From a virus (Duplodnaviria; Heunggongvirae; Uroviricota; Caudoviricetes): a DNA stretch of 64,000 nt. Both the position numbers and the translations under genes were made by a program. The stretch's first letter is position 1, and each line of letters opens with the position of its first letter. The notes under the pieces were generated by a model. That model was not told where the DNA came from. It worked only from the letters and a program-made list of their open reading frames with translations, and made no database searches. The DNA is taken from positions 1 through 64,000 of IMG/VR virus record IMGVR_UViG_2556921669_000003. One strand, 5' to 3'. Below, piece after piece: positions 31,568-61,866 of this stretch.

Positions 31568-31687
31568 GTGATGGGGCACTGCATGCCGGACGCCCCCACC
31601 TTAGGGACCGTACCCCGTTTCTGACCCCCTGCGGGTACGCAGCCGCCGATTGTCTGCGATTATAGATTTTGAAAAGGGGGTAACACC

Positions 31688-36072: not shown

Positions 36073-36084
36073 CAGGAAAATAGT

Positions 36085-37149: not shown

Positions 37150-37166
37150 TCGGAAGGTGTGTCTAG

Positions 37167-37826: not shown

Positions 37827-37896
37827 CGGACGCTCCTCCCAGACAATCCCCATTACGGCCACCCATCGGGTGGCCTTTATTTTAGGAGCTTCCTAA

Positions 37897-38295
37897 ATGA
37901 CTATGCTCAATATCTTCAAGGATGACGCGTTCAGCCTCACTTCGCTGACCGACTCCATCAACGAGATCGAGTACCGCTCGAGCCGAATTCAGGAGTTGGG
38001 CCTTTTCGAGGAAAAGGCAGTTGCCACGACCACGATTGCGATCGAGCGCATCGGCGACAAGATCCAGCTCGTTCCCCCGGCACCTCGTGGCGGTAAGGGT
38101 GACGTGAAGGAAAAGCAGAAGGCAACTGCCAAGCCCTTCGCGATTCCCCACTTTCCTCGCGAATGGTCCGTGTTGGCCGATGAAGTTCAGAACGTCCGCG
38201 CATTCGGCTCCGAGTCTGAAGTCGAAACGGTCATGTCCGTTGTCCTTGACAAGATCATGGACAACATGGCCGACATCGATGTGACGCATGAGTAT
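37897..38295 (+). pseudogene. major capsid protein (lambda gpE family), 5' portion (aa 1-133), interrupted by the insertion
   Basis: N-terminal similarity to lambda E stops at ...DIDVTHEY; the ORF then reads through AT-rich foreign sequence (..SGVSLKYRKKPRIYNN..). Confidence 0.75.
38284..38295. repeat. attL core: ACGCATGAGTAT (direct repeat, in frame T-H-E-Y)
   Basis: Identical 12-mer at 51772..51783, each at the break point of the capsid reading frame. Confidence 0.6.
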
Positions 38296-38465
38296 TCTGG
38301 GGTTAGCCTCAAATATAGAAAAAAACCACGAATATACAACAACTTAGCTCGGCGCAAGTCGGGCTATTTTGTTGCCCGACGGGCAACAACCTCCCCGAAC
38401 AAAAACAATGACTTACGGAAAGTCCGGGCAAACCCGCGCGACTTTCTTGCGACAAGGATTGCAGC

Positions 38466-38666
38466 ATGAGCACCAACGAAAAGGCTGACCTCCTTTATGG
38501 GGTGGCCAGCATCGCCAAGCACTTGGGCATTACCGAACGTCGAGCGCTCTACCTGAAGGAAAAGGGAAGCATTCCCACCTTCCAGATCGATCGTACCGTC
38601 TGTGCCCGAAAGACCAGCCTCAACGCTTGGCTTGCCGAGCAGGAAGCGAAGGGGAGGGGCGAATGA
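38466..38666 (+). CDS. xis: AlpA-family excisionase / DNA-binding regulator
   Basis: 66 aa; LLYGVASIAKHLGITERRALYLKEKGSIPTF is a typical AlpA/Xis winged HTH; sits about 170 nt inside the left junction after arm-like repeats (TTGTTGCCCG-A-CGGGCAACAA). Confidence 0.7.
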   Translation: MSTNEKADLLYGVASIAKHLGITERRALYLKEKGSIPTFQIDRTVCARKTSLNAWLAEQEAKGRGE

Positions 38667-38950
38667 CGAGGGGCCGCACCAAGGAAGCGCAGGACGCCTT
38701 CATTCAGAAGTTGCTTCACCCCGAAGCCGCCCCGGTGGAAGCCGACATTCCGCAACCGGATCCCGCGCCGCAAGAGGACGAGGAAGGCACGGATTATGAC
38801 CTGACCTTTGAGCAGATGAGCGTTGACCAGCTAAACGCGGTCCTCGCATGGAACGAAGGTGACGCCCAGATGACCTTGGACTTCCTTGCTGAGTTTCGCC
38901 CGTATGTGGAGGCCCGTCGCCGCGGCGAGCCCGTGAGGTGGCAGGAATGA
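38663..38950 (+). CDS. hypothetical protein (95 aa)
   Basis: ATGA overlap with the xis stop; acidic. Confidence 0.4.
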   Translation: MTRGRTKEAQDAFIQKLLHPEAAPVEADIPQPDPAPQEDEEGTDYDLTFEQMSVDQLNAVLAWNEGDAQMTLDFLAEFRPYVEARRRGEPVRWQE

Positions 38951-39153
38951 ATGCCATGGAGCGCATCTTGGCCGCCATGGCGGAAGGCCGGAGGAACGAC
39001 CCACCACATGAAGAGCTAAGTCTGCTGGACGCGCTTCGCTGCATGCTCCCGGCGGCGGAAGCGGATGCGGCGGAATCGCAAGGCCAACTTGATTTCTTGC
39101 GCGCGGAAATCGCCAAACTTGAGGCGGCGAAAGAGGAATCGGAGATGACGTGA
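38947..39153 (+). CDS. hypothetical protein (68 aa)
   Basis: ATGA overlap. Confidence 0.4.
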   Translation: MNAMERILAAMAEGRRNDPPHEELSLLDALRCMLPAAEADAAESQGQLDFLRAEIAKLEAAKEESEMT

Positions 39154-40394
39154 CATACCAAGAAGGTTCACGGGAGGAGTATGAGGCACACCTCGCTTCA
39201 ATTAGCGATGCGGAATGGAAGCGCCGCACTCAGGACGCCGTATGGTTTTCCAAAGACCCGCCCCGCCTTGGACCGGACCCGCCGCTGACCTTCCACAAGA
39301 ACTTCACGGCAATCCAGCCCAAACGGTATGTGGTGGGCGACTTCCTCGCGGAAGGCGAGGTGTCATGTTTCTTCGGTGAGCCCGGCGCGACTAAGGGCAC
39401 CATTGCGGTGGACATTGCCTGCCACGTCGCGGCCGGTCTGCCTTGGATGGGCCGCACGGCAGGGGGGCACCTTGACCCTTGGGAGAGGAAGGCGCTGGGC
39501 AAGGAGAGTATGCCGGCGGGCGTGCTCTATATCGCGCTCGAGCGCTCTACCCAGGTACAGCGCCGCGTTGAAGCGTTCACGGATGAGCACGGAATTCAGG
39601 AACCACTTGACCTTGCTATATGGTCCGGTCCGCTCGATCTAGTTGGTAGCGAAAGAGACGACATCCTCTCCGCCGTCTACGCGCATGAGCGAGCGCAGGA
39701 GGAGGACGAGGAAGGCGAGGGTAGCTACCGCGAAGTGCGACTCGTGGTGATTGACACCCTTGCCCGCGCCTTCGGCTCCGGTTCGGATAGCGGCGGCGAA
39801 GAGACGGCGGCGGTGGCGAGAAAGTTTGAGCGCGTTCTCCGGTTCCGTCCTGACCTGCATATCTTGGTGGTGCACCATACCCCGATAGGTGATGACTCCC
39901 GCCTTCGCGGCCACGGCAACCTGCTTGCCGCCTTTGACCAGACGGTGCGGGTACGCAAGCACAAGGTAGGTTCCACCGCCACGGTGATGAAGGACAACGA
40001 CACGGCGGAAGAGGGCAAAGCCCGGTTCGCCTATGCGCTCAAGAGTCGCGTCATCCACGTTGCCAAGGACGGCAAGGAAACCACCGCGCCTGTTGTGGTG
40101 CCGCTCCCGGCCGAGGCCGTCAAGCACGCCATGCCGAAGGTCAGCGTGAAGGCGGCGGGACCGAAGGCCAGCAAGAGCGAGCAACCGCTCCTAGATGCTC
40201 TTGAGGGGTTGGGTGGCTCTGCCACCGAAGCGGACTGGCGAGTGGCGTTTGATGCCGCAAGGCAGGATGGCCTATCACCAAGCGCTCACCGAAAGCGCTG
40301 GTCCGTCGGCCGGCCCGCCCTAGAGGCGAAGGGGCTGGTCCAAAAGGATTCCGAAGGGCGTTACCGCGTTACCGTTACCAACGTTACGGAATAA
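39150..40394 (+). CDS. RepA-like / AAA_25 replication initiator-helicase loader of the inserted element
   Basis: GEVSCFFGEPGATKGTIAVDIACHVAAGLPWMG parallels the helper PrimPol C-domain GEFTTISGLPGTGKSVVTTDLACHIAAGMDWHG; C-terminal wHTH-like region; GTGA overlap. Confidence 0.7.
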   Translation: MTYQEGSREEYEAHLASISDAEWKRRTQDAVWFSKDPPRLGPDPPLTFHKNFTAIQPKRYVVGDFLAEGEVSCFFGEPGATKGTIAVDIACHVAAGLPWMGRTAGGHLDPWERKALGKESMPAGVLYIALERSTQVQRRVEAFTDEHGIQEPLDLAIWSGPLDLVGSERDDILSAVYAHERAQEEDEEGEGSYREVRLVVIDTLARAFGSGSDSGGEETAAVARKFERVLRFRPDLHILVVHHTPIGDDSRLRGHGNLLAAFDQTVRVRKHKVGSTATVMKDNDTAEEGKARFAYALKSRVIHVAKDGKETTAPVVVPLPAEAVKHAMPKVSVKAAGPKASKSEQPLLDALEGLGGSATEADWRVAFDAARQDGLSPSAHRKRWSVGRPALEAKGLVQKDSEGRYRVTVTNVTE

Positions 40395-40510
40395 GAATGG
40401 TAACGCTTTTGGTAACGTAACGTTTTCAGACGGGGTTAGGGCGCACAGCGTTACCAACGTTACCGTTACTACCCCCCTCTTTAGAGGGGGAGTAAGTAAC
40501 GTAACGCTTG
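40360..40510. repeat. satellite origin: about 10 GGTAACG/CGTTACC iterons plus the palindrome CCCCCCTCTTTAGAGGGGG
   Basis: Iterons begin within the last codons of repA (..RVTVTNVTE) and continue for about 120 nt with no ORF. Confidence 0.5.
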
Positions 40511-40550
40511 GTGCGCTTCGCCCCGTGAAAAATCCGTAAGGGTGAAGATC

Positions 40551-40862
40551 ATGGAAATTGATGATGTAGAGCTCGCTGTCTCTCGGGCTTTGCGGGATGG
40601 CGCAGGAAACAAACCCGCGCAAGAATTCGGATTTGCTATCCAGCCCTTCCGGGGCACGCGCCTATGTGGCGGCGAGTTTGAGGACGCCGTGGCCGTTGTC
40701 GGCGTGCACTTCAACGGCAAGGGTGACTACAGCTTCATTTGTGTCGCGTCGGACGGCGTGGGCGAGACCTACGTCACTCAGGAGGAGAACCTTCTGGGCG
40801 TGGATCTTCCTTACGGCTTTCCACCGGCTCCGGCGCAGGACGCCAACCCGTCTGATCCATAG
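40551..40862 (+). CDS. hypothetical protein (103 aa)
   Basis: Follows the ori; AGGGTG SD. Confidence 0.4.
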   Translation: MEIDDVELAVSRALRDGAGNKPAQEFGFAIQPFRGTRLCGGEFEDAVAVVGVHFNGKGDYSFICVASDGVGETYVTQEENLLGVDLPYGFPPAPAQDANPSDP

Positions 40863-41016
40863 CCGCCATGAGCAAGGCGAGGAGGCGAGGAACGTCTCGC
40901 GTCCCGCTCTCAAACTCCGAAATGCGGACCTTGCTTCCGTACCCCAGAAGCGCCGCAAGCGCCTCCTGCTTATAGCCGAGGCGCTTGCGGATTGCTTTGA
41001 ACTCTTCGCTGGTCAT
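40774..41016 (-). CDS. XRE-family HTH transcriptional regulator
   Basis: LGYKQEALAALLGYGSKVRISEFESGTRDVP helix-turn-helix. Confidence 0.6.
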   Translation of the reverse strand: MTSEEFKAIRKRLGYKQEALAALLGYGSKVRISEFESGTRDVPRLLALLMAAMDQTGWRPAPEPVESRKEDPRPEGSPPE

Positions 41017-41231
41017 CGTGCGGCCCGCAGGTAATCCATGCCATAAACGTCAATGGTCCAATCGCCGTCTTCGGCGACTTCCATGGCCTGCATTACCAGC
41101 TTCCAAGCCTTTTCGCGAGAGACTTCGCGGTACACGTCACCGTCGACCTTCACGTCAAATGCATAGACCTTGCACTGGCCGTCGAAGCGGCGGGTGATGT
41201 TGACCTTGATGTCTGCGGTGCCGGTGTTCAT
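41013..41231 (-). CDS. small hypothetical protein (72 aa) co-transcribed with the XRE regulator
   Basis: GGGAGAG SD; ATGA overlap with the XRE gene; its promoter carries the GTAACGCATTTGCGTAAC palindrome. Confidence 0.45.
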   Translation of the reverse strand: MNTGTADIKVNITRRFDGQCKVYAFDVKVDGDVYREVSREKAWKLVMQAMEVAEDGDWTIDVYGMDYLRAAR

Positions 41232-41259
41232 TTCGCTCTCCCTTGCCGTTGGATTATTA

Positions 41260-41277
41260 GTAACGCATTTGCGTAAC
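41260..41277. promoter_or_regulatory. 18-bp palindromic operator GTAACGCATTTGCGTAAC in the spacer of the regulator-operon promoter (-35 TTGCTA)
   Basis: Reverse-complement copy (20/21 identity) of the site in the integrase promoter at 50358..50375. Confidence 0.45.
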
Positions 41278-41395
41278 TTTAGCAAGGGCGAATTTCAAGA
41301 ATTCGGTGCCGCATTCGTCTCCTGCGGACGGTGCCGGGCCGGGGAGTCGCGTCTCCTCTTTCTCCTCGGCCACCCCTTCAACAATAGGAAATCAC

Positions 41396-42337
41396 ATGAA
41401 CCACGTTGACCAAGAAAGGCTTGAGGCGCACGCCAAGGGCCTCCCTCTCCAAACCCGGCGCAAGCTGCCCGCGCTCATTGACGCCTCCGTTGACGCCATG
41501 ACGGCGTTCGGGGGTGCCAATGACACTGCCCGCGAAGCTCATACGGCTTACATTGATTCGCGGCTCCGCTTTATCAACCGCTGGAACGTCGAAGAGGCAC
41601 AAGCTCCTACCGGCGAACCAATCTTCACCTACGTGCCTGCCCGAAGGAACGAAGTGCCTGAGTTTCGCTTTGAAAGCGAACGTGAAGGCGTCATCGAGAA
41701 ATGGCAGGTCTGGCAGCGCCGAAAGCGTGCGCGGGACAAGGCAGACGTTGTTCGCGCGGGCAACGAATATCTTCAGGATATCCTGGGCTGGCTCCGCGAC
41801 AATCCCGGCCCCTTCAAGTCGGCCGCCATGCCGCCGGCGAAACTCGGTAAAGGCCAGACGCACCACCAGGCAGTGGAAGATATCCGCGAACGTCTGATCC
41901 GCATTGACGAGAAAGTCGCGGCCACAGAGTACGCTCCGACGCCGGCCGAAGACCTGATAGCCCGCGCCCATGCTGCCGTTGATGACTTAGCCCACCGGGG
42001 CAAGGTCCATATCTATACCAACAACCGGGACGGCTCGCCGGTGAACCTTTCGGGGAGCGGCAGGCTGACAGGCGTGACGGGCATTCTGCCAGAAACTCTG
42101 GTCTGGCTCCTGGCCGATGAAATCAAGGCCAGCGTTTCCGCCAAGATCCGCGAAGTCGCGTCCAAGGACGCAATCAGCGACTTTGACCGCGCTGCCGAAC
42201 TGTCCGCCCTAGCCGCTGACAAGCTTGCTTTGGAGCGGCTGGAAGAAGCCCACATTCTCGCGGCCGCCGAAATCGGCCAAATCATCCACCGACGCCGTGA
42301 AGCCAATCCGCGCGCAATTCTGGAACTTGAAGCATGA
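41396..42337 (+). CDS. hypothetical protein (313 aa) upstream of the satellite protease
   Basis: Start ATG after AGGAAATCAC; ATGA overlap with the downstream protease gene. Confidence 0.45.
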   Translation: MNHVDQERLEAHAKGLPLQTRRKLPALIDASVDAMTAFGGANDTAREAHTAYIDSRLRFINRWNVEEAQAPTGEPIFTYVPARRNEVPEFRFESEREGVIEKWQVWQRRKRARDKADVVRAGNEYLQDILGWLRDNPGPFKSAAMPPAKLGKGQTHHQAVEDIRERLIRIDEKVAATEYAPTPAEDLIARAHAAVDDLAHRGKVHIYTNNRDGSPVNLSGSGRLTGVTGILPETLVWLLADEIKASVSAKIREVASKDAISDFDRAAELSALAADKLALERLEEAHILAAAEIGQIIHRRREANPRAILELEA

Positions 42338-42957
42338 TCCAACTCGACATGATGGGCACGGTGGGCGAAGATTTCGACGCTGCAACCGTCAAGTTTGCCC
42401 TTGCGCAAGGTGGTGACGTGCATGTCACCCTCAATAGCGGGGGCGGGTTCGCGGCAGAGGGCGCCGCTATCTATGCCTTGTTGGACGCGCACCCCGGCCG
42501 GGTTCGCGTGGATATTGTTGGCATTGCGGCCAGTGCTGCAAGTCTCATTGCCATGGCGGGCGACAGCATCGTCATGTTTGATGGCGCGGTCATGATGATT
42601 CATGATCCGCTCAATATCACCATTGGCAACTCGGCGGCCCACGCCAAGACCATCGAGGAACTGGAAAGCTATGCGAAGGCATATGCGGCGATCTATGCCA
42701 AGAGAGCGAAGATCAGTCCTGCTGCGGCGCGAGCAATCATGCAGGCAGAAACTTGGTATGACGGCGAAGCCGCCGTGAAAGCCGGGTTCGCAACTGCCAA
42801 GTCTTCGAACGCTTCTGCCGCTTGGGCGAAGTTTGACTATGACAAATACCAAAAGGGTGCGGCGGCTGTAGCCGGTGCGAGCAGCACGCGTGCATCATGG
42901 AAACAGACAATCATGCGCCGCAAGGCATATGAAGACGCATTCGTAATCAGGGGATAA
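42334..42957 (+). CDS. S49/ClpP-like prohead-protease paralog (no scaffold domain)
   Basis: LNSGGGFAAEGAAIYALLDAHPGRVRVDIVGIAASAASLIAMAGDSIVMFDGAVMMIHDPLNITIGNSAAHAKTIEELESYAKAYAAIYAKRA is about 60% identical to helper protease 36085 residues 40-150. Confidence 0.7.
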   Translation: MIQLDMMGTVGEDFDAATVKFALAQGGDVHVTLNSGGGFAAEGAAIYALLDAHPGRVRVDIVGIAASAASLIAMAGDSIVMFDGAVMMIHDPLNITIGNSAAHAKTIEELESYAKAYAAIYAKRAKISPAAARAIMQAETWYDGEAAVKAGFATAKSSNASAAWAKFDYDKYQKGAAAVAGASSTRASWKQTIMRRKAYEDAFVIRG

Positions 42958-42962
42958 ATCAC

Positions 42963-43250
42963 ATGGCTACCACTCGACTATTCAATCTGCCCGCTGATGC
43001 ATGGACGCTTGTTGCGTCCGGTGCGGCCAGCATAACCATCAAGCCTATCACCAACGTGGCTATCCGTGCCTATGTCGGTCGTACCCTGCTGGAGGATACC
43101 AATGAGGCGCTTACCCTTGGCGGCCTGGGGGCTGTGCTAACGCTGGATAACCCGTCCGACGCTGACCATGTGTACCTCAAGCCAGCAGAGCGCACAGAGG
43201 TAGAGGTAGGCGTGGGCATGGCTTATCGCGCCTTGCTGCCGGGGGCCTGA
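42963..43250 (+). CDS. hypothetical protein (95 aa), possibly capsid-associated
   Basis: Directly after the protease paralog. Confidence 0.4.
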   Translation: MATTRLFNLPADAWTLVASGAASITIKPITNVAIRAYVGRTLLEDTNEALTLGGLGAVLTLDNPSDADHVYLKPAERTEVEVGVGMAYRALLPGA

Positions 43251-43383
43251 CCCGCCCCTGGCATAGGGACCGTTTGGCCTGTCCAAACCGATAGCGGGCG
43301 CGACACCCTCGCCGGTCGGACTTTATCTAGTTCAAAAACAGGGTAACAGAATGCGGACACCCCCGAAAATGGAGGCGAAACCC

Positions 43384-43578
43384 ATGGTTGCATACTTCGT
43401 CAACCAAGCGGCCTACGCCGAACACCAGAAGGTTTCAAGAAAGACTGTAACCATCTGGAAACAAAAGGGATACCTTGTTTTGAATTCGGCAGGACGAGTC
43501 AATGTCGCCGCATCAGATAAGCGTCTTTTGGACGCCTTCGGCGAACGTCGCCGCGTGTTACCCCCTGTCCGCAGGTAA
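43384..43578 (+). CDS. TerS N-terminal (HTH DNA-binding) domain paralog, stand-alone 64 aa
   Basis: VNQAAYAEHQKVSRKTVTIWKQKGYLVLNSAGRVNVAASDKRL vs helper TerS MNQAGFAAHRRVSRKTVTGWKQRGLLVLLPDGQVDVAASDRAL; GGAGG SD. Confidence 0.5.
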   Translation: MVAYFVNQAAYAEHQKVSRKTVTIWKQKGYLVLNSAGRVNVAASDKRLLDAFGERRRVLPPVRR

Positions 43579-43618
43579 CACCAACTGCGGACACCCCCAT
43601 CACCTTCACCATCCACGA

Positions 43619-43640
43619 CCCGCCGAAGCGCGGGTTTTTT
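43619..43640 (+). terminator. rho-independent terminator CCCGC-cgaagc-GCGGG plus TTTTTTGTTG
   Basis: GC stem followed by a T6 run, after the TerS-domain paralog. Confidence 0.5.
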
Positions 43641-43661
43641 GTTGTCCAGAAAGGACCACCC

Positions 43662-43928
43662 ATGACCGTAACCTACACCCTCCGCACTCCCGTTGAACAT
43701 GCTGGCACGACCTACCAGGAACTGACATTCCGCGAGGCCACGACGGGCGACATGATTGTTGCTGACAAGTTCGACGGCCCGAACGGCAAGCTCATCGCCA
43801 CCTTCGCCGCCATGTCTGACGTGCCGCTGCCCGCCTTCAAGAAGGTGAGCATGCGCGACTTCAACAAGATCGTCCTGGCGGTGGCTGACCTCATGGGGGA
43901 GGACGAAGCGGCGGATGGCGCGGCCTAG
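43662..43928 (+). CDS. tail assembly chaperone (lambda gpG-like)
   Basis: 88-aa acidic protein immediately upstream of the tape measure gene. Confidence 0.55.
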   Translation: MTVTYTLRTPVEHAGTTYQELTFREATTGDMIVADKFDGPNGKLIATFAAMSDVPLPAFKKVSMRDFNKIVLAVADLMGEDEAADGAA

Positions 43929-44121
43929 TCGCGGTCATCGCCTCAGAGCTCAATACCCCGATTCACGTCATTGAGCAGTGGCCGCCTGACAAGACCCTCG
44001 ACTGGTATCAGGCGGCCATTGAACTCATTGCGCTGAAGAACGGGCAGCATCCCCCCGAGCCATCTGAGGCTCACACGGCCATGAGCGCCACCATAAAAGC
44101 GAAAAAGGAAGCGCGGCATGA
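43928..44121 (+). CDS. gpT-like extension, probably expressed as a G-T fusion by -1 frameshift
   Basis: The -1 frame after the G stop is open and encodes ...VIEQWPPDKTLDWYQAAIELIALKNGQ..., typical of tail assembly protein T; slippery site not confidently identified. Confidence 0.35.
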
Positions 44122-46559: not shown

Positions 46560-47104
46560 GGATCAACATGGCAGGAACACTAGATGGGCTTCTCCGAAGC
46601 ATGGGGGAACGCATTCAGGATCTGGAGCGGCGGAACAATAATCGCCGCCGCACCGGCACCATTGCGGAAGGCCCTGATGAAAAGGGCCGGTATCGCGTCA
46701 ACATCTCAAAACAGGCCAGGGCGGATCAGCCGTATCTGACGCCATGGATACGCCCTAAGACCGTCGGGGCCGGCGCGGTCAAGATGGACGTGGTTTACGC
46801 CATTGGAGAGCAGGTCGATATTGTCTCAGAGAACGGGGATCTTACAGATGCCCGTATCGATTTCGGGATGTATTCCGACGACAACCCGCGCGAGAATGGC
46901 GAGAACGTGCCGCTCCGGCTGAAGGTAGGCGACTCCATCATCGAGGTGAGCGGGGGGGGCATCACCCTGAAGGCCACCAAGATCGTCCTAGACGGCACCG
47001 TGCACCTTGGAGGCGAAGGTGGGCAACTCCTCCACCGTAAGGGGGACGCAGATAGCGACGGCGATACGGCAGTCGGTTCGGCCAGCCGAGTCTACGCGGT
47101 GTAA
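46556..47104 (+). CDS. gpV-like baseplate spike/hub protein paralog
   Basis: N-terminal OB-fold region similar to helper gpV (53889); C-terminal 35 aa [41 protein letters not shown] is nearly identical to the helper copy. Confidence 0.65.
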   Translation: MRINMAGTLDGLLRSMGERIQDLERRNNNRRRTGTIAEGPDEKGRYRVNISKQARADQPYLTPWIRPKTVGAGAVKMDVVYAIGEQVDIVSENGDLTDARIDFGMYSDDNPRENGENVPLRLKVGDSIIEVSGGGITLKATKIVLDGTVHLGGEGGQLLHRKGDADSDGDTAVGSASRVYAV

Positions 47105-47106
47105 TC

Positions 47107-47754
47107 ATGCTCAAAATCGACATCAAGGGCGACGGTCTCGCCCTCTTCACCAAGGCGACGGCGGCCCTCAAGTCGCCCCGCAAGGCCGGCCAAGTCTTCA
47201 GCCGCGCCATCAATGAAACCGGACGGGTTGGGGGCACGGCTGCCGCCCGCGCTCTTGCCGTACAAACCGGACTGCCCCGCAAGACCACACTGAAGGCCGT
47301 GCGCCGCAACGTGTCGAAGTCGACTCCCGCCACCCTCTCCTATGTGATCCACGGACAGGGTGGCGACGTGAGCCTGAAATACTTCAAGCCGCGCGAAACC
47401 AGGGCCGGTGTAAGCGCCGCCCCGCGCGGCGTGCGGCAGGTATTTCCCGGTTTGTTTCAGAGGGCTGGCTGGTGGCCGAAACGTGTCGACAAGCCTGCCT
47501 GGAACAGGCAGATCTTCGTCCGCATTGGCGATGGCCACAGTTACAATCTCGCCAAGTCAAACCCGTTTGTGAAGTCCGGTCAGCAGAAGCGTGAGCGCGT
47601 CGGCACCAAGTTCGCCAAGCAAAAATCAGGCGTATTTATCCCAGTCGAGATGCTTCGCGGGGAGACGGCCAAGGTTTGGGATCAGACGTCCGCGCGCCTC
47701 GAGCCTCGGGTGATCCACCATATCAACCGGATGACGGGCGGGTTGTTCACATGA
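47107..47754 (+). CDS. gpZ-like tail completion protein paralog
   Basis: Collinear weak similarity to helper 30869 and lambda Z. Confidence 0.45.
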   Translation: MLKIDIKGDGLALFTKATAALKSPRKAGQVFSRAINETGRVGGTAAARALAVQTGLPRKTTLKAVRRNVSKSTPATLSYVIHGQGGDVSLKYFKPRETRAGVSAAPRGVRQVFPGLFQRAGWWPKRVDKPAWNRQIFVRIGDGHSYNLAKSNPFVKSGQQKRERVGTKFAKQKSGVFIPVEMLRGETAKVWDQTSARLEPRVIHHINRMTGGLFT

Positions 47755-47886
47755 TCACGGCAACCTCGGCAACACGGGCAACGGCGTTGCCGAGGTTGCC
47801 GGGCCTGTGCCTAGACCGACGCCGGGGCGTCCGACCCGCATTGGCCCCGTTGGGGCTGGAACAGTCTCTAACCCACCGGGGGTCTC

Positions 47887-48123
47887 ATGATCCGCATAAG
47901 CCACATGAACCCGGCGCGCGGCAGGATCGCCGCAACATTCACGGCAACGGTTGGGGAGCTAGTGCTCCCCGGCTGCGCCTTGATCAGGCGGGACGGCGGC
48001 TTCGGCTTGTCGGTGCCGCGCCTGACTGGCGAAGGCGGGACGCGGCGAGCCCCGCTATCCGATGCAATGGAAGCAGAACTTCTCAGGGTGGCAATAGCCA
48101 CGCACACAACCTCGGAGCAATGA
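47887..48123 (+). CDS. hypothetical protein (78 aa)
   Basis: Follows a perfect 16-bp inverted repeat (about 47757..47800). Confidence 0.35.
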   Translation: MIRISHMNPARGRIAATFTATVGELVLPGCALIRRDGGFGLSVPRLTGEGGTRRAPLSDAMEAELLRVAIATHTTSEQ

Positions 48124-48503
48124 TGACCAAATTCACCATTTCTAATATGAAGCCCTCACATCATGCCGGCAGCACGCTTGCCACCTTTAATGTGCACCTG
48201 CGCGAATTAGGGATTAGCCTGCGCGGGATCACCCTGTCCCGTCCTTCGCACGTCCCCGTGCCTGAGACGCGGCTATACTTCCCTGACCAAAGGAAGGTAA
48301 GCGACACCGCATACTACATCGGTCCCTGTGAACTTCGAACCAGGATCGGCGCCGCTGCTTGTGCCGCTTACACGGCAATGACGGGGGAGCCCGCATCATT
48401 CATTCCGAAAGAGGCAATCGACGACAGCACCGAAGATGAGGCTGCCGGCATGATGCGCTTCATTGGCGCGGAAAACGAAACGCTGCGCAAGGCGGGGATC
48501 TAG
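48120..48503 (+). CDS. hypothetical protein (128 aa)
   Basis: ATGATG start overlapping the upstream stop. Confidence 0.4.
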   Translation: MMTKFTISNMKPSHHAGSTLATFNVHLRELGISLRGITLSRPSHVPVPETRLYFPDQRKVSDTAYYIGPCELRTRIGAAACAAYTAMTGEPASFIPKEAIDDSTEDEAAGMMRFIGAENETLRKAGI

Positions 48504-48512
48504 GAGAACACC

Positions 48513-48848
48513 ATGAACGCAATCGAACGTTGGTCAGCTATCATGGCGCTGCCCGAATACAACGAACAGCTTCATGCTATGGCTGCGCTGCTCTTCAAGG
48601 ATGAGCAGTTGTCGGTAGAGCAGGTGCAAGCAACGCTTGCTGTGGCGAAGCGAAGCGCGCCGGCTGCCAGCAAGGTGGAGACGCCTGAGAGCTATGACGC
48701 CTATAGGGCACGGATGGCGCAGGCCGCTGGCGACGAGCTAGAAATTGCGGGCGCACGACTTAGTGACGGTCGCTCAGCCAAGGACATCTCCACGAAGGCA
48801 CTCTGGGCCAAGGCCATTGCCGAGGTCAATGCGCGCCGCCAACCTTGA
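48513..48848 (+). CDS. hypothetical protein (111 aa)
   Basis: Non-repetitive; its stop lies inside the next operator-promoter copy. Confidence 0.45.
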   Translation: MNAIERWSAIMALPEYNEQLHAMAALLFKDEQLSVEQVQATLAVAKRSAPAASKVETPESYDAYRARMAQAAGDELEIAGARLSDGRSAKDISTKALWAKAIAEVNARRQP

Positions 48849-48873
48849 CAAATTTGTAAAAGGATACTATGCC
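48845..48873 (+). promoter_or_regulatory. operator-promoter copy TTGACAAATTTGTAAAA inside the satellite
   Basis: Exact 17-mer identical to the helper PR operator; followed by the CACCACAAGAGGAGACT module. Confidence 0.45.
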
Positions 48874-48919
48874 TCTTGATGCCGGTGCACCAACCCGGCA
48901 ATCACCACAAGAGGAGACT

Positions 48920-49075
48920 ATGATGACCGACGAACGCAGAATGTCTGCCCTTAAGCTTGTCATTGAGGCGCGGCGGCTTTGGGGCAACACGGTTGCTCAA
49001 GAGCTATGGCGGCACTTAGGACTGCCAGCGGTTCCAGCCATGCTGTTGCCACCATGTGCGGTGGAGAAGGACTAA
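48920..49075 (+). CDS. small hypothetical protein (51 aa) under the helper-type operator
   Basis: MMTDERRMSALKLVIEARRLWGNTVAQELWRHLGL... Confidence 0.4.
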   Translation: MMTDERRMSALKLVIEARRLWGNTVAQELWRHLGLPAVPAMLLPPCAVEKD

Positions 49076-49083
49076 CGGGAGAA

Positions 49084-49106
49084 CCCGGCTTCGGCCGGGT
49101 TTTTTA
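49084..49106. terminator. bidirectional rho-independent terminator CCCGGC-ttcg-GCCGGG plus TTTTTT
   Basis: Located between convergent genes 48920 (+) and 49104..49409 (-). Confidence 0.45.
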
Positions 49107-49409
49107 TTGTTTGGTCTTGTATTCCGGACGGGCCTTCGCCGGCGGCTTGAAGGAAGCGCAAGCCTCGTCTACGGATGGCGCGCGGGCGTACTGCTCCCTG
49201 ATATAGGTCCGGTCCTTCGCCACCAACTGGGGGTCTGATCCGTTGATGGTCATGCTCGCCACCATGACCCCCAGGGAATGCTCCTGGCTGAAGTCGCAAT
49301 GAGCGACCATCCATTCAAGGGCAAGCGCGCCTTGCAGGTGCGTGAACTCCTCCGCATGCGCGGGGGCGGCGAGGGCAAGGGCGGCTGCTAGCGGAAGAGC
49401 GATTCTCAT
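49104..49409 (-). CDS. secreted small protein (signal peptide MRIALPLAAALALAAPAHA)
   Basis: GGGAGGA SD; Sec-type signal peptide plus an 80-aa mature domain with 2 Cys; opposite strand to its neighbours. Confidence 0.5.
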   Translation of the reverse strand: MRIALPLAAALALAAPAHAEEFTHLQGALALEWMVAHCDFSQEHSLGVMVASMTINGSDPQLVAKDRTYIREQYARAPSVDEACASFKPPAKARPEYKTKQ

Positions 49410-49901
49410 ATTTGTATCCTCCCTAAAATTAGTGACGCGCGAACCGCCCGTCCTTGCCGGGACGGGTGTTGCGTTTGTGAACGAATAGGGTGAATATGTT
49501 CGCGGAGCTTCAGAACTCCCGCATCGGTCCCTTGCCGGGGATTGCGATGCTAACCGCGATAGGCGTGCGCTGCGGCTTGCCGGCCGAGGTACGCTGAAAA
49601 CTTGACGAGACAACGCCGTTGTCCCGACCGGCTCACTATTGCCGGGAAGGCCACGGTCGTCAAGAGGTAACTCTTGGCCTTGCATAAGCCCGAAAGGGTG
49701 AAGGTCGTGGCGCATGTCTTCGCGGGCATGTTCTGAACTTCCCGGCGCCAGCCTGCTGCTGGCTTGCCCTTCACGTTCGCCTTCAGAAGCGCCGTGACGG
49801 AAGTAACCGCGAGCAAAATCTCTATGCACAAGAGCCTATATTTTGAAAGCCCACCTCCCGCATTCCAGCGTGAGGAGGAAGAGCCTTCCGACGTTCCAAG
49901 A

Positions 49902-50261
49902 ATGGCGGAGCTATCCAGCCGGTTGCGCACCTCCATGAGGGACTACGCGCCAATGCCCGACGCTGCCATGAACGACATGAACCGCGCCCACACCGCCGTG
50001 ATCCATGCGCTCATAGCCGCGCCTATTTCCAAATCCCGTGACGTGGCATGCAAGCTTCGCGTCCTAGCTGATCTTGTTGAGGGGGACGAAGGCGGCGTGC
50101 TGGTCCATGAGGAGGACATGCTTGTGGCGTGCCTCCATGACCTTGGGGCCTTGCGTATCCGTGACGCGCTTACGCTCGGCTTTGGCTGGGTTGAGAGCAT
50201 CTATGGTGATCTCCTTCAACTTCGTGGCGGCGGGTTTAGCGAACTCGACGTAGCGGGATAG
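49902..50261 (+). CDS. hypothetical protein (about 120 aa)
   Basis: Internal Met of ORF 49764; the upstream part lacks coding character. Confidence 0.4.
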   Translation: MAELSSRLRTSMRDYAPMPDAAMNDMNRAHTAVIHALIAAPISKSRDVACKLRVLADLVEGDEGGVLVHEEDMLVACLHDLGALRIRDALTLGFGWVESIYGDLLQLRGGGFSELDVAG

Positions 50262-50357
50262 CTCCGCCGGTGCCGGTGCTCGCGTAGTGCCGGCCAAGAG
50301 AGGGCCGTCCGCTTCATATGGAGGCGGGCGGTCTCTTTCGTTTTAGGGGTTGCAAAA

Positions 50358-50375
50358 GTTACGCAAATGCGTAAC
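50358..50375. promoter_or_regulatory. 18-bp palindromic operator GTTACGCAAATGCGTAAC in the integrase promoter spacer (-35 TTGCAA)
   Basis: Same architecture and sequence as the site at 41260..41277 in inverted orientation. Confidence 0.45.
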
Positions 50376-50401
50376 ATGGCGTTATCAGATTTCGATAGGA
50401 G

Positions 50402-51751
50402 ATGATCATGGCTAGTGTAAGAAAGCGGTTCCCGGATGACCCGAAGTCGCCTTGGGTTTGCGACTATGTAGATCAGTCGGGCACGCGCCGACTAAAGACG
50501 TTCAAGATGAAGAAGCTCGCCGACGCTTTTCGGATGAAAATGGAAGCGGAGATATCTGAGGGCATTCACACGTCAGACAGAGAAAGCGTGACGGTCGCAC
50601 AGGCCGCCGACGCCTTTATCAGGGACTGCGAACGGCGACACCACATAGGTGACGAGATGTCCGGTTCGTCCCTGGCCGCTTACCGTGGCGCCGTAAAGGT
50701 CGTGAAGCTTCGGTTCGGCAGCATGCTGGTGAAAAACCTGACAACCATTGCCGTGCAGGCGTGGGTGGACGAGTTGTCGGTGCAAAGGAAGCGCAACACC
50801 CTCCACAGTAGGTATCGCGCGCTTCGCATGATATTGACGTTTTCGGTGCGCAAGGGATGGATCAAGCGAAGCGTGCTCAAGGACGAACCGGCCCGTCTGC
50901 CGGCACTCGGCAATGAGCGGGTCCGAATTCCAACGAAGGCTGATATCGTCAAGGTCATCGACGCTACGCGAAAGGAAAAAAAGCCCGGCCGACATTACAA
51001 CACCGTCCTAGTCAACCGCGCGATTGTGCTGCTTGGCTTTCACTGCGGAATGCGTATCGGTGAGATAGCAGGACTCCAGTGGGAGAACGTCGATTTTACC
51101 AATGACACCGTTGCCGTGCGTCACAGTCATTCGCGCGAAGACGGGTTGAAGGCGCCGAAGTCATCTGCGGGGAATCGAGATATTCCCATGTCTCCCGATG
51201 TGCGGGCGGCACTCATGGACTTGTGGCAATACTGGACATTGAGGGCGCGTGTCGTGAAACTTGACGCGGGCGGCTACTCCAAGGGCAAGTGCACGCCGAA
51301 GGCGACATTCACCCGTCGCCGCAATCAGTTGGAACGGGCGCTTGCGCAGCCGTTCTCGGCGCACGAAGTTGATGAACCTCTTGAAGGTTTCGTCATGCGT
51401 TCAATTGCCGCCAACGGCCGGCACGGCTTTGAGCATTATGACCCGGCCGGGGTGGCAAACCTGCAAGCGTCCAACTGGCACACAATCATGTCGGACGCCG
51501 GCCTTCTAGACGACGACGGAAAACCTCTGTTCTCTTCGCACAAGATGCGACATGCGGCAGTCAGCCTCATGATTGAAAGCGGGCTTCCCGCACTCAACCT
51601 AAAGACGGTTATCGGTCACAAGAATATCAACACCACGATGTCCGTTTACGCGCATCTATTCCCTGATGATCAGCGCTCCAAGATCGCCATAGAAGGGATT
51701 GCGGCGGCCTTGGACGCGACAAGGGTGCGACAAAATAACGTAAGTATCTGA
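50402..51751 (+). CDS. int: tyrosine site-specific integrase
   Basis: C-terminal catalytic region with the R...HxxR...Y pattern (..HKMRHAAVSLM...MSVYAHL); 20 nt inside the right junction. Confidence 0.85.
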   Translation: MIMASVRKRFPDDPKSPWVCDYVDQSGTRRLKTFKMKKLADAFRMKMEAEISEGIHTSDRESVTVAQAADAFIRDCERRHHIGDEMSGSSLAAYRGAVKVVKLRFGSMLVKNLTTIAVQAWVDELSVQRKRNTLHSRYRALRMILTFSVRKGWIKRSVLKDEPARLPALGNERVRIPTKADIVKVIDATRKEKKPGRHYNTVLVNRAIVLLGFHCGMRIGEIAGLQWENVDFTNDTVAVRHSHSREDGLKAPKSSAGNRDIPMSPDVRAALMDLWQYWTLRARVVKLDAGGYSKGKCTPKATFTRRRNQLERALAQPFSAHEVDEPLEGFVMRSIAANGRHGFEHYDPAGVANLQASNWHTIMSDAGLLDDDGKPLFSSHKMRHAAVSLMIESGLPALNLKTVIGHKNINTTMSVYAHLFPDDQRSKIAIEGIAAALDATRVRQNNVSI

Positions 51752-51771
51752 ATTACTTAGCTGTCAGAATA

Positions 51772-51783
51772 ACGCATGAGTAT
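51772..51783. repeat. attR core: ACGCATGAGTAT
   Basis: Second copy of the 12-mer; in frame with the downstream capsid C-terminal reading frame. Confidence 0.6.
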
Positions 51784-52422
51784 CACCGTCTCGGCGCCAT
51801 TCAGGGCCTCGTGACCTACGCTGACGGGACGACGCTTGATCTTTTCAGCGAATTCGCTGTCTCGCAGGCCGCAGAACTCGACTTCGATCTCGACAACGCC
51901 AACCCAGCGGAAGGCGTACTTCGCAAGGCTTGCTCCAATGTCGTCCTCAGCACGCGCAACGCGATGGGCGGCTCGCCGTTTGCTCGCGTTCACGCATTTG
52001 TGGGTGACACGTTCTTTGACCAGTTGATTTCCCATAAGGAAGTCCGCGAGACCTACAAGGGGTGGTCGGAAGCCGCCATCCTTCGTGATAGCTACGTCAG
52101 TCCTGATCGAGGCGGCAACGACATCTTCTCCTTCGGTGGCATCGCGTTTGAGCGGTACGGCGCAGCCACCTCTGTAGGCGACGGCGCCAAGATCGGCATA
52201 GAGGCTACCAAGGCGAAGTTCTTCCCGGTCGGCGCCCGTGGCATGTTCAAGACGTATTACGCGCCGGCTCCGTACATGGAGACGGTGAACACGCTGGGTC
52301 GTCCGTTCTACGCCAAGCAGGCTCTGCTTGACCTGGACAAGGGCGTCTACGGCGAAACGCAGATGAACGCTCTGGACATCTGCACACGTCCGAAGGCGCT
52401 GATGCGCGCCAAGAACACCTAA
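51784..52422 (+). pseudogene. major capsid protein (lambda gpE family), 3' portion (about 212 aa)
   Basis: Collinear with the C-terminal half of lambda E; reading frame continuous through the 12-mer; fusion with 37897..38295 gives a 345-aa protein (lambda E is 341 aa). Confidence 0.75.
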
Positions 52423-52453: not shown

Positions 52454-52837
52454 ATGCCAGTTGCTGCCCGTTTTCACGACCTGCGCGACAAAGTGCTGGC
52501 CGGTGTGGACCATGTCTTCGCCGAGCCAGTGCGCTTGTCGTTCTTCAAGAGTGGGGTGCTGGACCCATCAAGACCAGCGATTGAGATCGAAGCCGTCTTC
52601 CGGGTCGGCGAGGGGAAGACGACCAGCGTAGACGGCGGCCGGGCGCAAAGCTGGCGCAGCCGGATCGTCGCCGACAAGGCGCAACTGCACATCGATCGGG
52701 CCGCTTATAGCGGGCCGCAGCCTAATACTGGCGACAAGGTCCGCGCCCTAGCGAGGCACGGCCAGCCGTGGTTTGAAGTCGCCGACGTCGATGACCGCAG
52801 CCACACACGGCTGGTTTTGAATTTGAATGAGGCGTAG
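52454..52837 (+). CDS. putative head completion / head-tail adaptor protein
   Basis: Position directly after the capsid gene; 127 aa. Confidence 0.4.
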   Translation: MPVAARFHDLRDKVLAGVDHVFAEPVRLSFFKSGVLDPSRPAIEIEAVFRVGEGKTTSVDGGRAQSWRSRIVADKAQLHIDRAAYSGPQPNTGDKVRALARHGQPWFEVADVDDRSHTRLVLNLNEA

Positions 52838-52841
52838 GTCG

Positions 52842-53033
52842 ATGGCAGCCACTCCGAAGGATTGGATGAAGCCGTTCCTGCTTCTGGCGAACTCCGATGG
52901 CGTCCGTGCGTTCTACCGCGAGATGCCAAGCGAACAACTCGTTTGGCTGCGCAGCCAGCTTCCGAACGCCTCGGTTGATGAGTTTGAGCAACCCGACAGG
53001 CAACGCGTCGTAGAGTTCCGCACTTATAGCTAG
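52842..53033 (+). CDS. small hypothetical virion-module protein
   Basis: Internal ATG of ORF 52827. Confidence 0.3.
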   Translation: MAATPKDWMKPFLLLANSDGVRAFYREMPSEQLVWLRSQLPNASVDEFEQPDRQRVVEFRTYS

Positions 53034-53040
53034 GTGATCA

Positions 53041-54422: not shown

Positions 54423-54453
54423 TTTCTGGCTTCGGCCAAAAAGGACACCCCAC

Positions 54454-54828: not shown

Positions 54829-54830
54829 GC

Positions 54831-56932: not shown

Positions 56933-56936
56933 GCTT

Positions 56937-61844: not shown

Positions 61845-61866
61845 CCCCCATCCAAAGGACACTCTC

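Follow-up and report, generated by a model that had tools for sequence, protein, structure and literature searches.

How does a prophage come to carry its major capsid gene in two pieces, and what is the DNA that lies between them? The window analysed here, that is the whole stretch of 64,000 nt, corresponds to contig AYLZ02000109.1 of the draft genome of Shinella sp. DD12. The interrupted prophage, termed the helper below, is a lambda-headed, P2-tailed myovirus of the Aurantimonas phage AmM-1 type. Its head and tail modules flank the two capsid fragments as follows:

31602..37875, + strand: helper head module upstream of the capsid gene
37897..38295, + strand: helper major capsid gene, 5′ part, codons 1–133
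38284..38295, + strand: attL core, left copy of ACGCATGAGTAT, an exact 12-bp direct repeat
51772..51783, + strand: attR core, right copy of the same exact repeat
51784..52422, + strand: helper major capsid gene, 3′ part, codons 134–345 plus stop in the rejoined frame
52454..64000, + strand: helper tail module downstream

The head module comprises a cos-like motif, small terminase (31688–32311), gpA-type large terminase, lambda-type portal, ClpP protease-scaffold and gpD-type decoration protein genes, and a terminator before the capsid gene. The tail module contains gpV, gp25/W, J, I and fibre genes, and a tail sheath gene that crosses the window end.

An earlier note on this DNA had proposed that the capsid fragments are halves of a single family member, that a 12-mer marks both break points in frame and that deletion of 38296..51783 would restore a 345-aa ORF. 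All three proposals held. Joining 37897–38295 to 51784–52422 with 38296–51783 removed gave 345 aa followed by a stop codon, and in the suggested comparison with the family profile the rebuilt protein matched positions 1–329 of 329 of Pfam Phage_cap_E in a single stretch spanning both fragments (E = 4.4e-90). ACGCATGAGTAT has exactly two copies in the window, each encoding Thr-His-Glu-Tyr in the capsid frame, whereas none would be expected by chance (100 shuffles). These 12 bp are all that the two ends have in common: the left fragment enters unrelated sequence and forms a fusion ORF of 190 aa that ends at 38469; the right fragment lacks a start codon and has in-frame stops ahead of it. The gene is split in frame at codons 130–133 by an insert of 13,488 bp (38296–51783) and so, as the note had also stated, no full-length helper capsid protein can be made while the element is integrated. 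The rebuilt capsid aligned without gaps across the junction to two intact 345-aa homologues, P0001 (95% identity) and P0002 (86%). The latter comes from a Rhizobium laguerreae prophage that is collinear with the helper and in which the capsid gene is unbroken. The proposed search for an intact gene thus succeeded in a relative; an allele at 100% identity was not found in the protein database.

Because the source is a draft genome, the junctions might reflect two unrelated contigs joined during assembly. We regard this as extremely improbable, since a separate Logan assembly (SRR1519328) contains the same integrase/capsid-C junction, making it common to two independent assemblies, and exact in-frame 12-bp repeats lie at both ends. 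In addition, when the two ends are joined, the resulting attP region is collinear with int–alpA regions that are contiguous in two related loci, L004 and L010.

The genes nearest the junctions, together with the left part of the element, encode candidate functions for integration, excision, replication and regulation:

38345..38366, + strand: terminator-like hairpin, then T-run, just inside the left end (also in L004 and L010)
38466..38666, + strand: AlpA/HTH_17-type excisionase-regulator candidate, 66 aa (phrog_18541)
38627..39153, + strand: two small ORFs, 107 aa and 71 aa, between alpA and repA
39150..40394, + strand: RepA-like AAA_25 ATPase, replication initiator/helicase candidate (AAA_25, 6e-25; phrog_906, phrog_6012)
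40355..40510, unstranded: candidate origin, direct and inverted GTTAC/GTAAC units that form two clusters around a G/C hairpin
40774..41285, − strand: divergent XRE-family HTH regulator (40774–41016; HTH_31, HTH_3) and 90-aa ORF (41013–41285)
50402..51751, + strand: tyrosine integrase, 449 aa (annotated 447; Pfam Phage_integrase; phrog_1, 2e-54)

The spacings given in the earlier note were confirmed: 20 nt separate the integrase stop from the right repeat, and 170 nt separate the left junction from the alpA start. The integrase is 100% identical to a Shinella sp. DD12 protein. The rebuilt attP reads CAGAATA-ACGCATGAG-TATTCTG, with paired 7-bp inverted repeats around the overlap region, and the locus shows the defining features of a tyrosine-recombinase element: a catalytic-domain integrase beside the att site, identical core repeats and inverted core-type sites in attP. 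Excision is predicted to leave the attB junction ATCGATGTGACGCATGAGTATCACCGTCTC and to produce a circular form with the attP junction GTCAGAATAACGCATGAGTATTCTGGGG. Consistent with the predicted attP form, L004 and L010 are circularly permuted, in the order int, variable core, terminator, alpA, repA. The match of AlpA to Pfam HTH_17 (E = 0.005) falls below the curated cut-off; its homologues (40–84% identity) adjoin related integrases. The hairpin would come after the integrase gene in the circular form. In the integrated form it separates alpA from the junction, and transcription from the helper late operon may not read past it.

The profile matches also bear out the proposed RepA-like and XRE genes. 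RepA shares 82% identity with its L004 counterpart (tblastx) and 27% with the AAA_25 part of the helper prim-pol protein, and homologues of XRE (69%) and the 90-aa ORF (62%) adjoin a related integrase in L180. The iteron origin that had been suggested stood in part: at least 12 short GTTAC/GTAAC units are arrayed at and beyond the repA 3′ end, but the candidate origin contains no long iterons. The 107-aa and 71-aa ORFs had no family matches in Pfam or PHROG.

The remainder of the element consists largely of morphogenetic cargo, and all its major genes are on the + strand, the same as the helper late operon:

41306..42337, + strand: orf343, long-helix protein (annotated 313 aa from 41396), satellite-family hallmark and scaffold-like candidate
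42334..42957, + strand: ClpP-type head maturation protease, 207 aa (profile matches)
42963..43250, + strand: orf95, small beta-rich protein (80% identical in L004)
43251..43272, + strand: cos-like motif, a C-rich run and then TAGGGACCG, 87 nt upstream of the mini-TerS start
43351..43578, + strand: mini-TerS, 75 aa, homologue of the N-terminal DNA-binding part alone of the helper small terminase (phrog_57)
43662..43928, + strand: tail assembly chaperone (TAC), P2 gpE-like (Phage_TAC_7, 4e-12)
44118..46559, + strand: tape measure protein (TMP), 813 aa (PhageMin_Tail; phrog_28, 4e-83)
46556..47104, + strand: gpV-like baseplate spike (Phage_base_V)
47107..47754, + strand: tail completion/Neck1 protein, gpZ-like (phrog_27)
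48123..48848, + strand: orf126 and orf111 (orf126 65% identical in L013)
48844..49105, + strand: helper-type promoter/operator CTTGACAAATTTGTAAAA (18-mer match) with palindrome ACAAATTTGT, shared leader and RBS, small ORF and terminator
49104..50334, unstranded: accessory region

Several of these proteins are, as the earlier note recognised, paralogues of helper virion proteins. The protease is 58% identical to the N-terminal half of the helper protease-scaffold (36109–36636) and orf111 is 43% identical to its C-terminal scaffold part (36886–37137). Mini-TerS is 63% identical over 43 aa to the helper small-terminase N-terminus (31703–31831), and the element and helper gpV (53883–54416) share 65% protein and 71% DNA identity. 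The tail-completion protein is 28% identical to the helper protein at 30878–31483, and 45% identical to the product of an R. laguerreae prophage gene adjoining the small-terminase gene. The helper TAC and TMP genes lie outside the window, and paralogy of these two is assumed from phage AmM-1. The AlphaFold2 (AF2) model of orf343 (pLDDT 86) consists almost entirely of long helices and had no fold match in the PDB. The orf343 family has 2,938 cluster representatives and no Pfam or PHROG family; one homologue, in L030, is separated by 16 nt from an E-family capsid gene downstream of it. For orf95 (AF2 pLDDT 71), structure matches were weak and cupin-like.

Two further sequences tie the element to its helper. 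TAGGGACCG occurs only in the motif at 43251–43272 and at 31602, the latter 86 nt upstream of the helper small-terminase start, and the position of the cos-like motif is kept in L001, L004 and L013–L015. The promoter/operator 18-mer is identical at helper positions 5894, 18729 and 28457, i.e. the element holds one copy of a promoter/operator that heads three helper operons; it is also found in L001, L014 and L016. The small ORF behind it runs from 48869 or ∼48920 to 49075. Beyond it, the accessory region contains a secreted-type 100-aa ORF (49104–49409, minus strand), an ORF of ∼155–165 aa (49764–50261) and a strong terminator (50302–50334), with no PADLOC, Pfam or PHROG matches.

Could the element be a small temperate phage in its own right, nested within another prophage? 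Its protease, TAC, TMP, spike and tail-completion genes would fit, and PhageMin_Tail was counted as a prophage signature in a study of helper-embedded satellites (PMC10111431). However, Pfam and PHROG searches of every ORF found no large terminase, portal, major capsid, tube, sheath, baseplate wedge, fibre or lysis genes in the element, and 13.5 kb is too small, so we consider an autonomous nested phage highly unlikely. Lacking large terminase, portal, capsid, tube, sheath and lysis genes, the element depends on a helper, and its earlier description as 'autonomous' was overstated. Like satellites in general, it is without its own essential virion genes and has an integration/excision and replication module. 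We conclude that the 13,488 bp are probably a helper-dependent phage satellite, inserted by its own integrase at the 12-bp core in the capsid gene.

As judged from the junctions, excision of such a satellite is predicted and must restore the capsid gene. The life cycle would run as follows. In the lysogen, the helper regulator of the ACAAATTTGT promoters would also silence the satellite copy. Upon induction, this promoter would fire, the XRE block would be lifted, and AlpA and Int would excise the satellite, which RepA could then replicate from the GTTAC array. Excision would rejoin the capsid gene, such that helper capsid protein appears only once the satellite is free. Helper terminase may then package the satellite via the cos-like site and mini-TerS, and the satellite protease, orf343, orf111 and the TAC–TMP–spike set probably remodel helper heads and tails to fit a genome ∼0.28× the helper size.

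The same arrangement might instead serve the bacterium, with the element locking the prophage by regulated gene integrity and its morphogenetic genes being remnants. With the capsid gene disrupted, helper capsids cannot form, and satellites commonly interfere with helpers. Yet PADLOC detected no defence system in the element, and the cos-like site, mini-TerS and morphogenetic set conserved across relatives suggest the element's own transfer, which leaves a bacterial lock very unlikely.

Relatives of the satellite occur both inside other prophages and in chromosomes. The same layout splits large terminase (TerL) genes: related integrases abut the truncated-TerL 3′ part in L034/L127, L126 and L147, and for L034 the evidence extends to both junctions, alpA and the rebuilt TerL. 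The L034 element is full of IS-like genes and its orf343 is truncated, indicating that embedded copies can decay. Chromosomal family members resemble the element in cargo but have other integrases and sit between ordinary chromosomal genes, outside any prophage. In the closest relative, metagenome loci L013/L014, the shared cargo includes orf343 (70%), the ClpP protease (90%), mini-TerS, TMP and orf126, as well as the cos-like motif and the TTGACAAATTTGT promoter. Islands in Hoeflea sp. Naph1 (CP177286; L016) and Mesorhizobium sp. YIM 152430 (L017) share orf343 (41% and 31%, respectively) and the TAC and TMP genes, and that of Hoeflea also has the promoter. No satellites in Hyphomicrobiales turned up in literature searches; the shared promoter and cos-like motif provide search signatures for them.

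The decayed L034 copy raises the question of whether the present insertion is a dead end, i.e. a secondary-site accident in a now-cryptic prophage whose composite neither excises nor makes particles. The exact insertion is known from one genome only, the excised form is absent from the record as far as the protein database goes, and many truncated-looking helpers and off-target integrations have been reported for helper-embedded satellites (PMC10111431). Nevertheless, the two repeat copies do not differ by a single base, and the capsid halves align to an intact homologue at 95% identity without insertions or deletions. Comparison with relatives shows both of these halves to be of full length, as are int, alpA, repA and every helper head and tail ORF seen. 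Moreover, related integrases are found repeatedly in head genes, which argues for tropism rather than accident. A dead-end insertion is therefore unlikely, and a helper-dependent satellite remains our preferred reading.

That relatives of the integrase split TerL genes in other prophages points to an independent alphaproteobacterial lineage. Whether this satellite is the first recognised member of such a helper-embedded lineage, one that retargets among head genes and whose cargo remodels the myovirus head and tail, we consider evenly balanced. Under that proposal, the AlpA-integrase targets are residues 130–133 of capsid E here and residues ∼110 and 122 of the large terminase elsewhere, possibly also the portal and a late intergenic site in Azospirillum; the cargo comprises scaffold-like orf343, the protease, the truncated small terminase and the TAC–TMP–spike set.

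Compared with known systems, the element resembles P4-type and PICI/SaPI capsid-size redirectors in being about a quarter to a third of helper genome size, in having its own integrase, excision regulator and replicon and a putative helper-type packaging signal (the cos-like motif), and in encoding proteins related to helper head-assembly proteins. In contrast, those satellites integrate at chromosomal sites, capsid remodelling is only inferred here, and no Sid, Psu, Delta or CpmA/B homologues were detected with PHROG. The capsid, portal and head-tail connector proteins that cf-PICIs encode were likewise not detected in the element. As in phage regulatory switches (regulated gene integrity; comK and sigK elements), a coding gene is interrupted and precise excision restores its frame, but here the gene that is split is itself part of another mobile element, and the benefit likely goes to the satellite instead of the cell.

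Although the earlier note found no described family that fits, helper-embedded PICIs (HE-PICIs), some of them in capsid gene E, were described in Enterobacterales in 2023 (Tommasini, Mageeney and Williams; PMC10111431). The founding member, Eco567.11capE of E. coli NRG857c, interrupts a lambda-E-family capsid gene, and 491 more cases are spread over 14 sites in late genes. Excision was measured experimentally, and the survey found phage surroundings in Enterobacterales alone (PMC10111431). The lambda-E-family capsid gene, the commonest HE-PICI target, is also the target here, and in both cases attP holds no replacement sequence, so that the target gene is restored on excision only. Both also combine an AlpA-type gene with a tyrosine integrase, carry captured helper late genes and presumably use helper cos packaging. 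The parts differ, however. The element integrase scored 17.7 bits (E = 0.72, BLASTP) against the NRG857c 11capE integrase, below the 400 bits that delimit the 11capE clade (PMC10111431), and the doubled TGTATTGC found ∼81 bp upstream and 132 bp downstream of the HE-PICI attP centre is missing, its one copy in the window (6953) lying outside the element. HE-PICIs are ordered integrase-AlpA, Bro, primase replication and late genes, with the integrase at the upstream end, whereas this element runs alpA, repA (AAA_25), xre, late genes and int, with the integrase at the downstream end and no Bro or primase domain (Pfam, PHROG). The insertion site is at ∼119 on the Phage_cap_E profile rather than 80, the element is without its own capsid gene, and it has TAC, TMP and spike genes, while PhageMin_Tail matched no model satellite in PMC10111431. 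Finally, its host is an alphaproteobacterium and its helper a myovirus. If the element is active, satellite embedding in a helper structural gene evolved at least twice, with integrases lacking detectable pairwise similarity, on different satellite backbones and in different bacterial classes. Embedding would then be a general answer to two satellite needs, helper linkage and the timing of helper capsid after the satellite's own release; a tail-remodelling set (TAC, TMP, spike) would be added to known satellite cargo, and the large unannotated orf343 family would gain its first functional handle. By its integrase, attP motif and gene order, the element lies outside the published HE-PICI family, as a new lineage that follows a known embedding strategy with unrelated parts in another bacterial class.

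The 64-kb window has exactly two copies of the 12-mer ACGCATGAGTAT (0 expected by chance), located at 38284-38295 and 51772-51783, and both read THEY in the capsid frame. An ORF that opens at 37897 specifies 133 residues resembling capsid protein, up to DIDVTHEY, and then runs into unrelated sequence of lower GC. On the right side, the frame entering 51772 reads THEY-HRLGAIQG and is open until the stop codon at 52420-52422. When 37897-38295 is fused to 51784-52422, the product is a 345-aa protein that covers positions 1-329 of the 329 in the Pfam Phage_cap_E profile in one stretch (E=4.4e-90), confirming the proposal of the earlier note that the two halves belong to one family and that the 12-mer lies in frame at both break points. 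The search of other genomes for an uninterrupted allele, which the same note had suggested, recovered intact, ungapped 345-aa homologues from the protein database (95% and 86% identical), and the alignment is gap-free across the junction, which lies inside a conserved T-x-EY-x-R-x-GA-x-QG motif. The 86% homologue is encoded in a Rhizobium laguerreae prophage whose gene order matches that on both sides of the insert: small and large terminase, portal, protease, decoration protein and capsid, with the same tail genes following. An identical integrase/capsid-C junction is present in the Logan assembly of SRR1519328, which is separate from Shinella sp. DD12 contig AYLZ02000109.1, the contig to which the window corresponds. 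Together, these results demonstrate a precise, in-frame, site-specific insertion of 13,488 bp into the capsid gene. The junctions predicted after excision are attB = ATCGATGTGACGCATGAGTATCACCGTCTC and attP = GTCAGAATAACGCATGAGTATTCTGGGG.

Upstream of the insert, the flanking (helper) prophage encodes a small terminase, a gpA-type large terminase, a lambda-type portal, a ClpP-type protease with a C-terminal extension and a gpD-type decoration protein. Its gpV, gp25/W, J, I and fibre-like genes lie 3′ of the insert, and a tail sheath gene reaches past the window end. With no tube or tape measure gene following the capsid gene, a tail-less or podovirus-type helper was considered; this was refuted by the sheath gene and by the gene order of Aurantimonas phage AmM-1, in which the tube, chaperone, tape measure and U/X/D genes are placed after the fibre genes. 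AmM-1 is a myovirus and the closest cultured match to the helper tail genes. The helper has a P2-like tail module after its fibre genes, and since the AmM-1 tape measure comes after the fibre genes, the helper's own is probably located beyond the window. The early genes include a candidate S24-type repressor (3612-4289) together with the helper's own DNA polymerase III beta clamp, small sigma-70-family factor, N6/N4 DNA methylase and prim-pol/AAA_25 replicase. A tRNA-Met gene (30776-30851) lies within a long ORF called at 30542-31486, and therefore the helper gpZ-like tail-completion gene probably starts near 30866. The decoration gene and the capsid start are separated by a strong hairpin of terminator type (37857-37875; GGCCACCCATCGGGTGGCC and then a T-run).

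Helper loci
11863-13059, DNA polymerase III beta clamp
15517-16020, small sigma-70-family factor
22700-24004, N6/N4 DNA methylase
25423-27603, prim-pol/AAA_25 replicase
31688-32311, small terminase with N-terminal HTH, upstream of the insert

Genes and sites of the insert
38345-38366, terminator-like hairpin
38466-38666, alpA-type gene
38627-39153, two small ORFs
39150-40394, AAA_25 RepA-like protein
40355-40510, array of GTTAC/GTAAC units
40774-41285, minus strand, divergent XRE gene and 90-aa ORF
41306-42337, orf343
42334-42957, ClpP head protease, 207 aa
42963-43250, orf95
43351-43578, mini-TerS, a 75-aa small-terminase N-terminal homologue
43662-43928, tail assembly chaperone (TAC)
44118-46559, tape measure (TMP), 813 aa
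46556-47104, gpV-like spike
47107-47754, tail-completion protein
48123-48848, orf126 and orf111
48869-49075, small ORF behind a helper-type promoter
49104-50334, accessory region
50402-51751, tyrosine integrase

The int, alpA and repA genes of the element are intact. No element ORF matched a large terminase, portal, major capsid, tube, sheath or lysis protein; the element is thus unable to build a virion alone and depends on its helper, and the earlier description of it as autonomous does not hold. Since an Rfam scan of 37.5-52.6 kb returned no matches, no P4-type immunity RNA was found, and a PADLOC scan of the unassigned ORFs of the element detected no defence genes. The orf95 model was of moderate confidence with weak cupin-like matches, and orf95 showed no similarity to the helper decoration protein. 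Among cultured phages, the integrase gave nothing beyond distant Thermus and Bacillus phage matches.

In agreement with the earlier observation that the element carries versions of helper virion genes, six of its proteins are paralogues of helper proteins, five of them virion-related and the sixth RepA.

Element proteins and their helper paralogues
ClpP protease, N-terminal half of the helper protease-scaffold protein, 58% identity
orf111, C-terminal scaffold part of the same helper protein, 43% identity
gpV-like spike, helper gpV, 65% identity
mini-TerS, N-terminal part of the helper small terminase, 63% over 43 aa
Tail-completion protein, helper gpZ-like protein, 28% identity
RepA, AAA_25 part of the helper prim-pol protein, 27% identity

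Two short sequences also tie the element to its helper. The motif TAGGGACCG, following a C-rich run, has only two copies in the window. One precedes the start of the helper small-terminase gene by 86 nt, and the other precedes that of mini-TerS by 87 nt. Satellite relatives and the R. laguerreae prophage carry the motif at the equivalent position, and it is a candidate packaging (cos) signal. The 18-mer CTTGACAAATTTGTAAAA, which contains a perfect -35 hexamer overlapping the palindrome ACAAATTTGT, heads three helper transcription units (5894-5911, 18729-18746 and 28457-28474), with a fourth, diverged helper copy facing leftward (5213-5230, minus strand). The element has a single copy (48844-48861) with a leader and ribosome-binding site similar to those of the helper. 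Further copies of the 18-mer occur in the R. laguerreae prophage and in relatives of the element that reside in chromosomes of other genera. It is plausible that this shared promoter/operator is a way for the element to sense the regulatory state of the helper, with the S24 repressor (3612-4289) and the sigma factor (15517-16020) as candidate regulators. The promoter-like cassette TTGACAAATTTGT(A), in which the palindrome ACAAATTTGT spans the -35 hexamer and spacer, recurs at these window positions and is exactly conserved across genera, in Shinella, Rhizobium and Hoeflea as well as in metagenomes, both in prophages and in satellite-like islands (comparison loci L001 at 740 and 1480; metagenomic L014 at 4365 and 7681; Hoeflea L016 at 8233, 15771 and 15818).

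When the element ends are joined, attP has 7-bp inverted repeats around the overlap (CAGAATA-ACGCATGAG-TATTCTG). Two metagenomic loci, L004 and L010 (integrases 61% and 37% identical, respectively), carry in contiguous order the integrase, a variable core, a terminator hairpin, GCGCGACTTT..TGCGACAAGGA and alpA, followed in L004 by repA and downstream genes. This arrangement is a circular permutation of the Shinella element, i.e. the unintegrated form. The core sequences differ, as expected if the targets are not the same, and the L004 core had no informative match in the sequences examined for its target. In many relatives alpA is present as two paralogues: the first precedes int and is translationally coupled to it, and the second follows the attP region (L004 209-502 and 2089-2292; L010 5750-5929 and 7320-7496; also L041 and L043). 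The Shinella element has one alpA only, closest (84%) to the int-coupled paralogue. An HNH region upstream in another locus, L005, was ruled out as a homologue of the right end of the element, as there was no similarity.

The closest relatives of the morphogenetic block are ∼10-12 kb islands with other integrases among ordinary chromosomal genes. These include the metagenomic L013/L014 island (orf343 70% and protease 90%, plus mini-TerS, TMP and orf126) and islands in Hoeflea sp. Naph1 and Mesorhizobium sp. YIM 152430. Therefore, the backbone is of a conventional chromosomal satellite type, onto which the Shinella member acquired a helper-targeting integrase. Only 16 close homologues of orf343 were present among 5.8 billion proteins, and a profile search gave 2,938 cluster representatives, none belonging to a Pfam or PHROG family; phage and plasmid collections and a single-sequence IMG/VR search returned none. 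The AF2 model of orf343, of good confidence (pLDDT 86), is nearly all long helices and had no significant match in the PDB. In L030 (IMGVR_UViG_2784746739_000005, 10001-11941), a member of the orf343 family precedes a full-length Phage_cap_E capsid gene by 16 nt; both lie in a small island with its own integrase, which may be a capsid-encoding relative of the family. Scaffold genes are classically positioned directly upstream of the capsid gene. We infer a scaffold-like function for orf343.

Parts of the element also occur in other contexts. In two 7-14 kb contigs (L011/L012; IMGVR_UViG_3300006048_000035 and 3300050490_000058), the alpA-repA module (RepA 55% identical) adjoins genes for an HK97-type capsid, a large terminase, TMP_3 and a GTA-gp10-like protein. 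These contigs represent another kind of small phage-like element with the same replication module. In L180 (IMGVR_UViG_3300050490_000032, 1063-2308), a 30%-identical integrase is immediately preceded by homologues of xre (69%) and of its neighbour orf90 (62%).

Related integrases suggest that late-gene targeting is recurrent. One IMG isolate genome has a 63-kb predicted prophage (L034/L127; IMGVR_UViG_2630968760_000001) in which the gpA-type large terminase is broken near residue 125 into parts that lie 16 kb apart (3131-3535 and 19530-20249). The intervening DNA has an alpA homologue at its left, a truncated orf343 homologue, IS-like genes and a 37%-identical integrase that ends ∼45 nt before the right junction; both junctions carry the 7-bp repeat GATGCGG, and the rebuilt QPTVPDA|EDFGSGEIAPMLRDTP matches the helper large terminase. 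A second genome (L126; IMGVR_UViG_2551306538_000004, 4535-6007) has the same right junction. Elsewhere, related integrases adjoin a large terminase truncated at about residue 110 (L147, 7155-7300) and a portal lacking its N-terminus (L145, 7161-7300). For L126, L145 and L147 the flanks covered one half of the gene, and these cases are suggestive of split genes. In Azospirillum brasilense CP059450.1 (L027, 4683-11191), a ∼6.5-kb low-GC island between prophage head and tail genes contains an alpA homologue, a pRha-type gene and AT-rich cargo ORFs, is closed at the right by a 39%-identical integrase and is bounded by the 9-bp repeat GATTGATTT. The integrase clade of the element shows signs of a tropism for head genes. 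A related integrase also lies by a weak ClpP fragment beginning at about residue 110 (L146, 7265-7435). In a 52-kb metagenomic phage contig (L009), two paralogous tape-measure-like genes (3711-5795 and 11440-13494) flank an integrase-bearing insert, around which no direct repeats were found.

We propose the following course of excision, replication and packaging for the element. The satellite promoter at 48844 would be controlled by a helper regulator, and on induction AlpA and Int would excise the element, which RepA would replicate from the GTTAC array. As excision would rebuild the capsid gene, helper capsid would be made only after satellite release. The satellite would then be packaged by the helper terminase, with its protease, orf343, orf111 and TAC-TMP-spike set fitting helper heads and tails to a smaller genome (∼0.28x the 47.8 kb of AmM-1). 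Since a terminator-like hairpin precedes alpA, transcription running in from the helper late operon may require antitermination; otherwise the element may use promoters of its own.

The earlier interpretation was largely right, except for the word 'autonomous' and the claim that the element maps to no described family. Helper-embedded PICIs (HE-PICIs) were described by Tommasini, Mageeney and Williams in 2023 (PMC10111431), with a founding case, Eco567.11capE, inside a lambda-E-family capsid gene. That study measured 11capE excision after mitomycin C, listed 491 further cases over 14 late-gene sites and found relatives of the 11capE integrase in phage surroundings in Enterobacterales only (PMC10111431). 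In the literature searched, 'helper-embedded' otherwise appeared in a preprint of that study and in four documents with a single use each, and the Shinella DD12 genome paper does not mention phage. Like HE-PICIs, the Shinella element brings no replacement sequence, has an AlpA-type gene and a tyrosine integrase, and has captured helper late genes. In contrast, its integrase scores 17.7 bits against that of 11capE and sits at the downstream end, the attP motif TGTATTGC is absent, and it is without a Bro zone, a primase or its own capsid gene. Its tape measure is of the PhageMin_Tail family, which matched none of the model satellites of the study, and its insertion site corresponds to roughly position 119 of the Phage_cap_E profile, an estimate based on the alignment of 13-344 to 1-329, rather than 80. 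The element therefore follows the HE-PICI strategy yet fails the defining markers of that family, and is a helper-embedded satellite from a different integrase clade, a different backbone and a different bacterial class.
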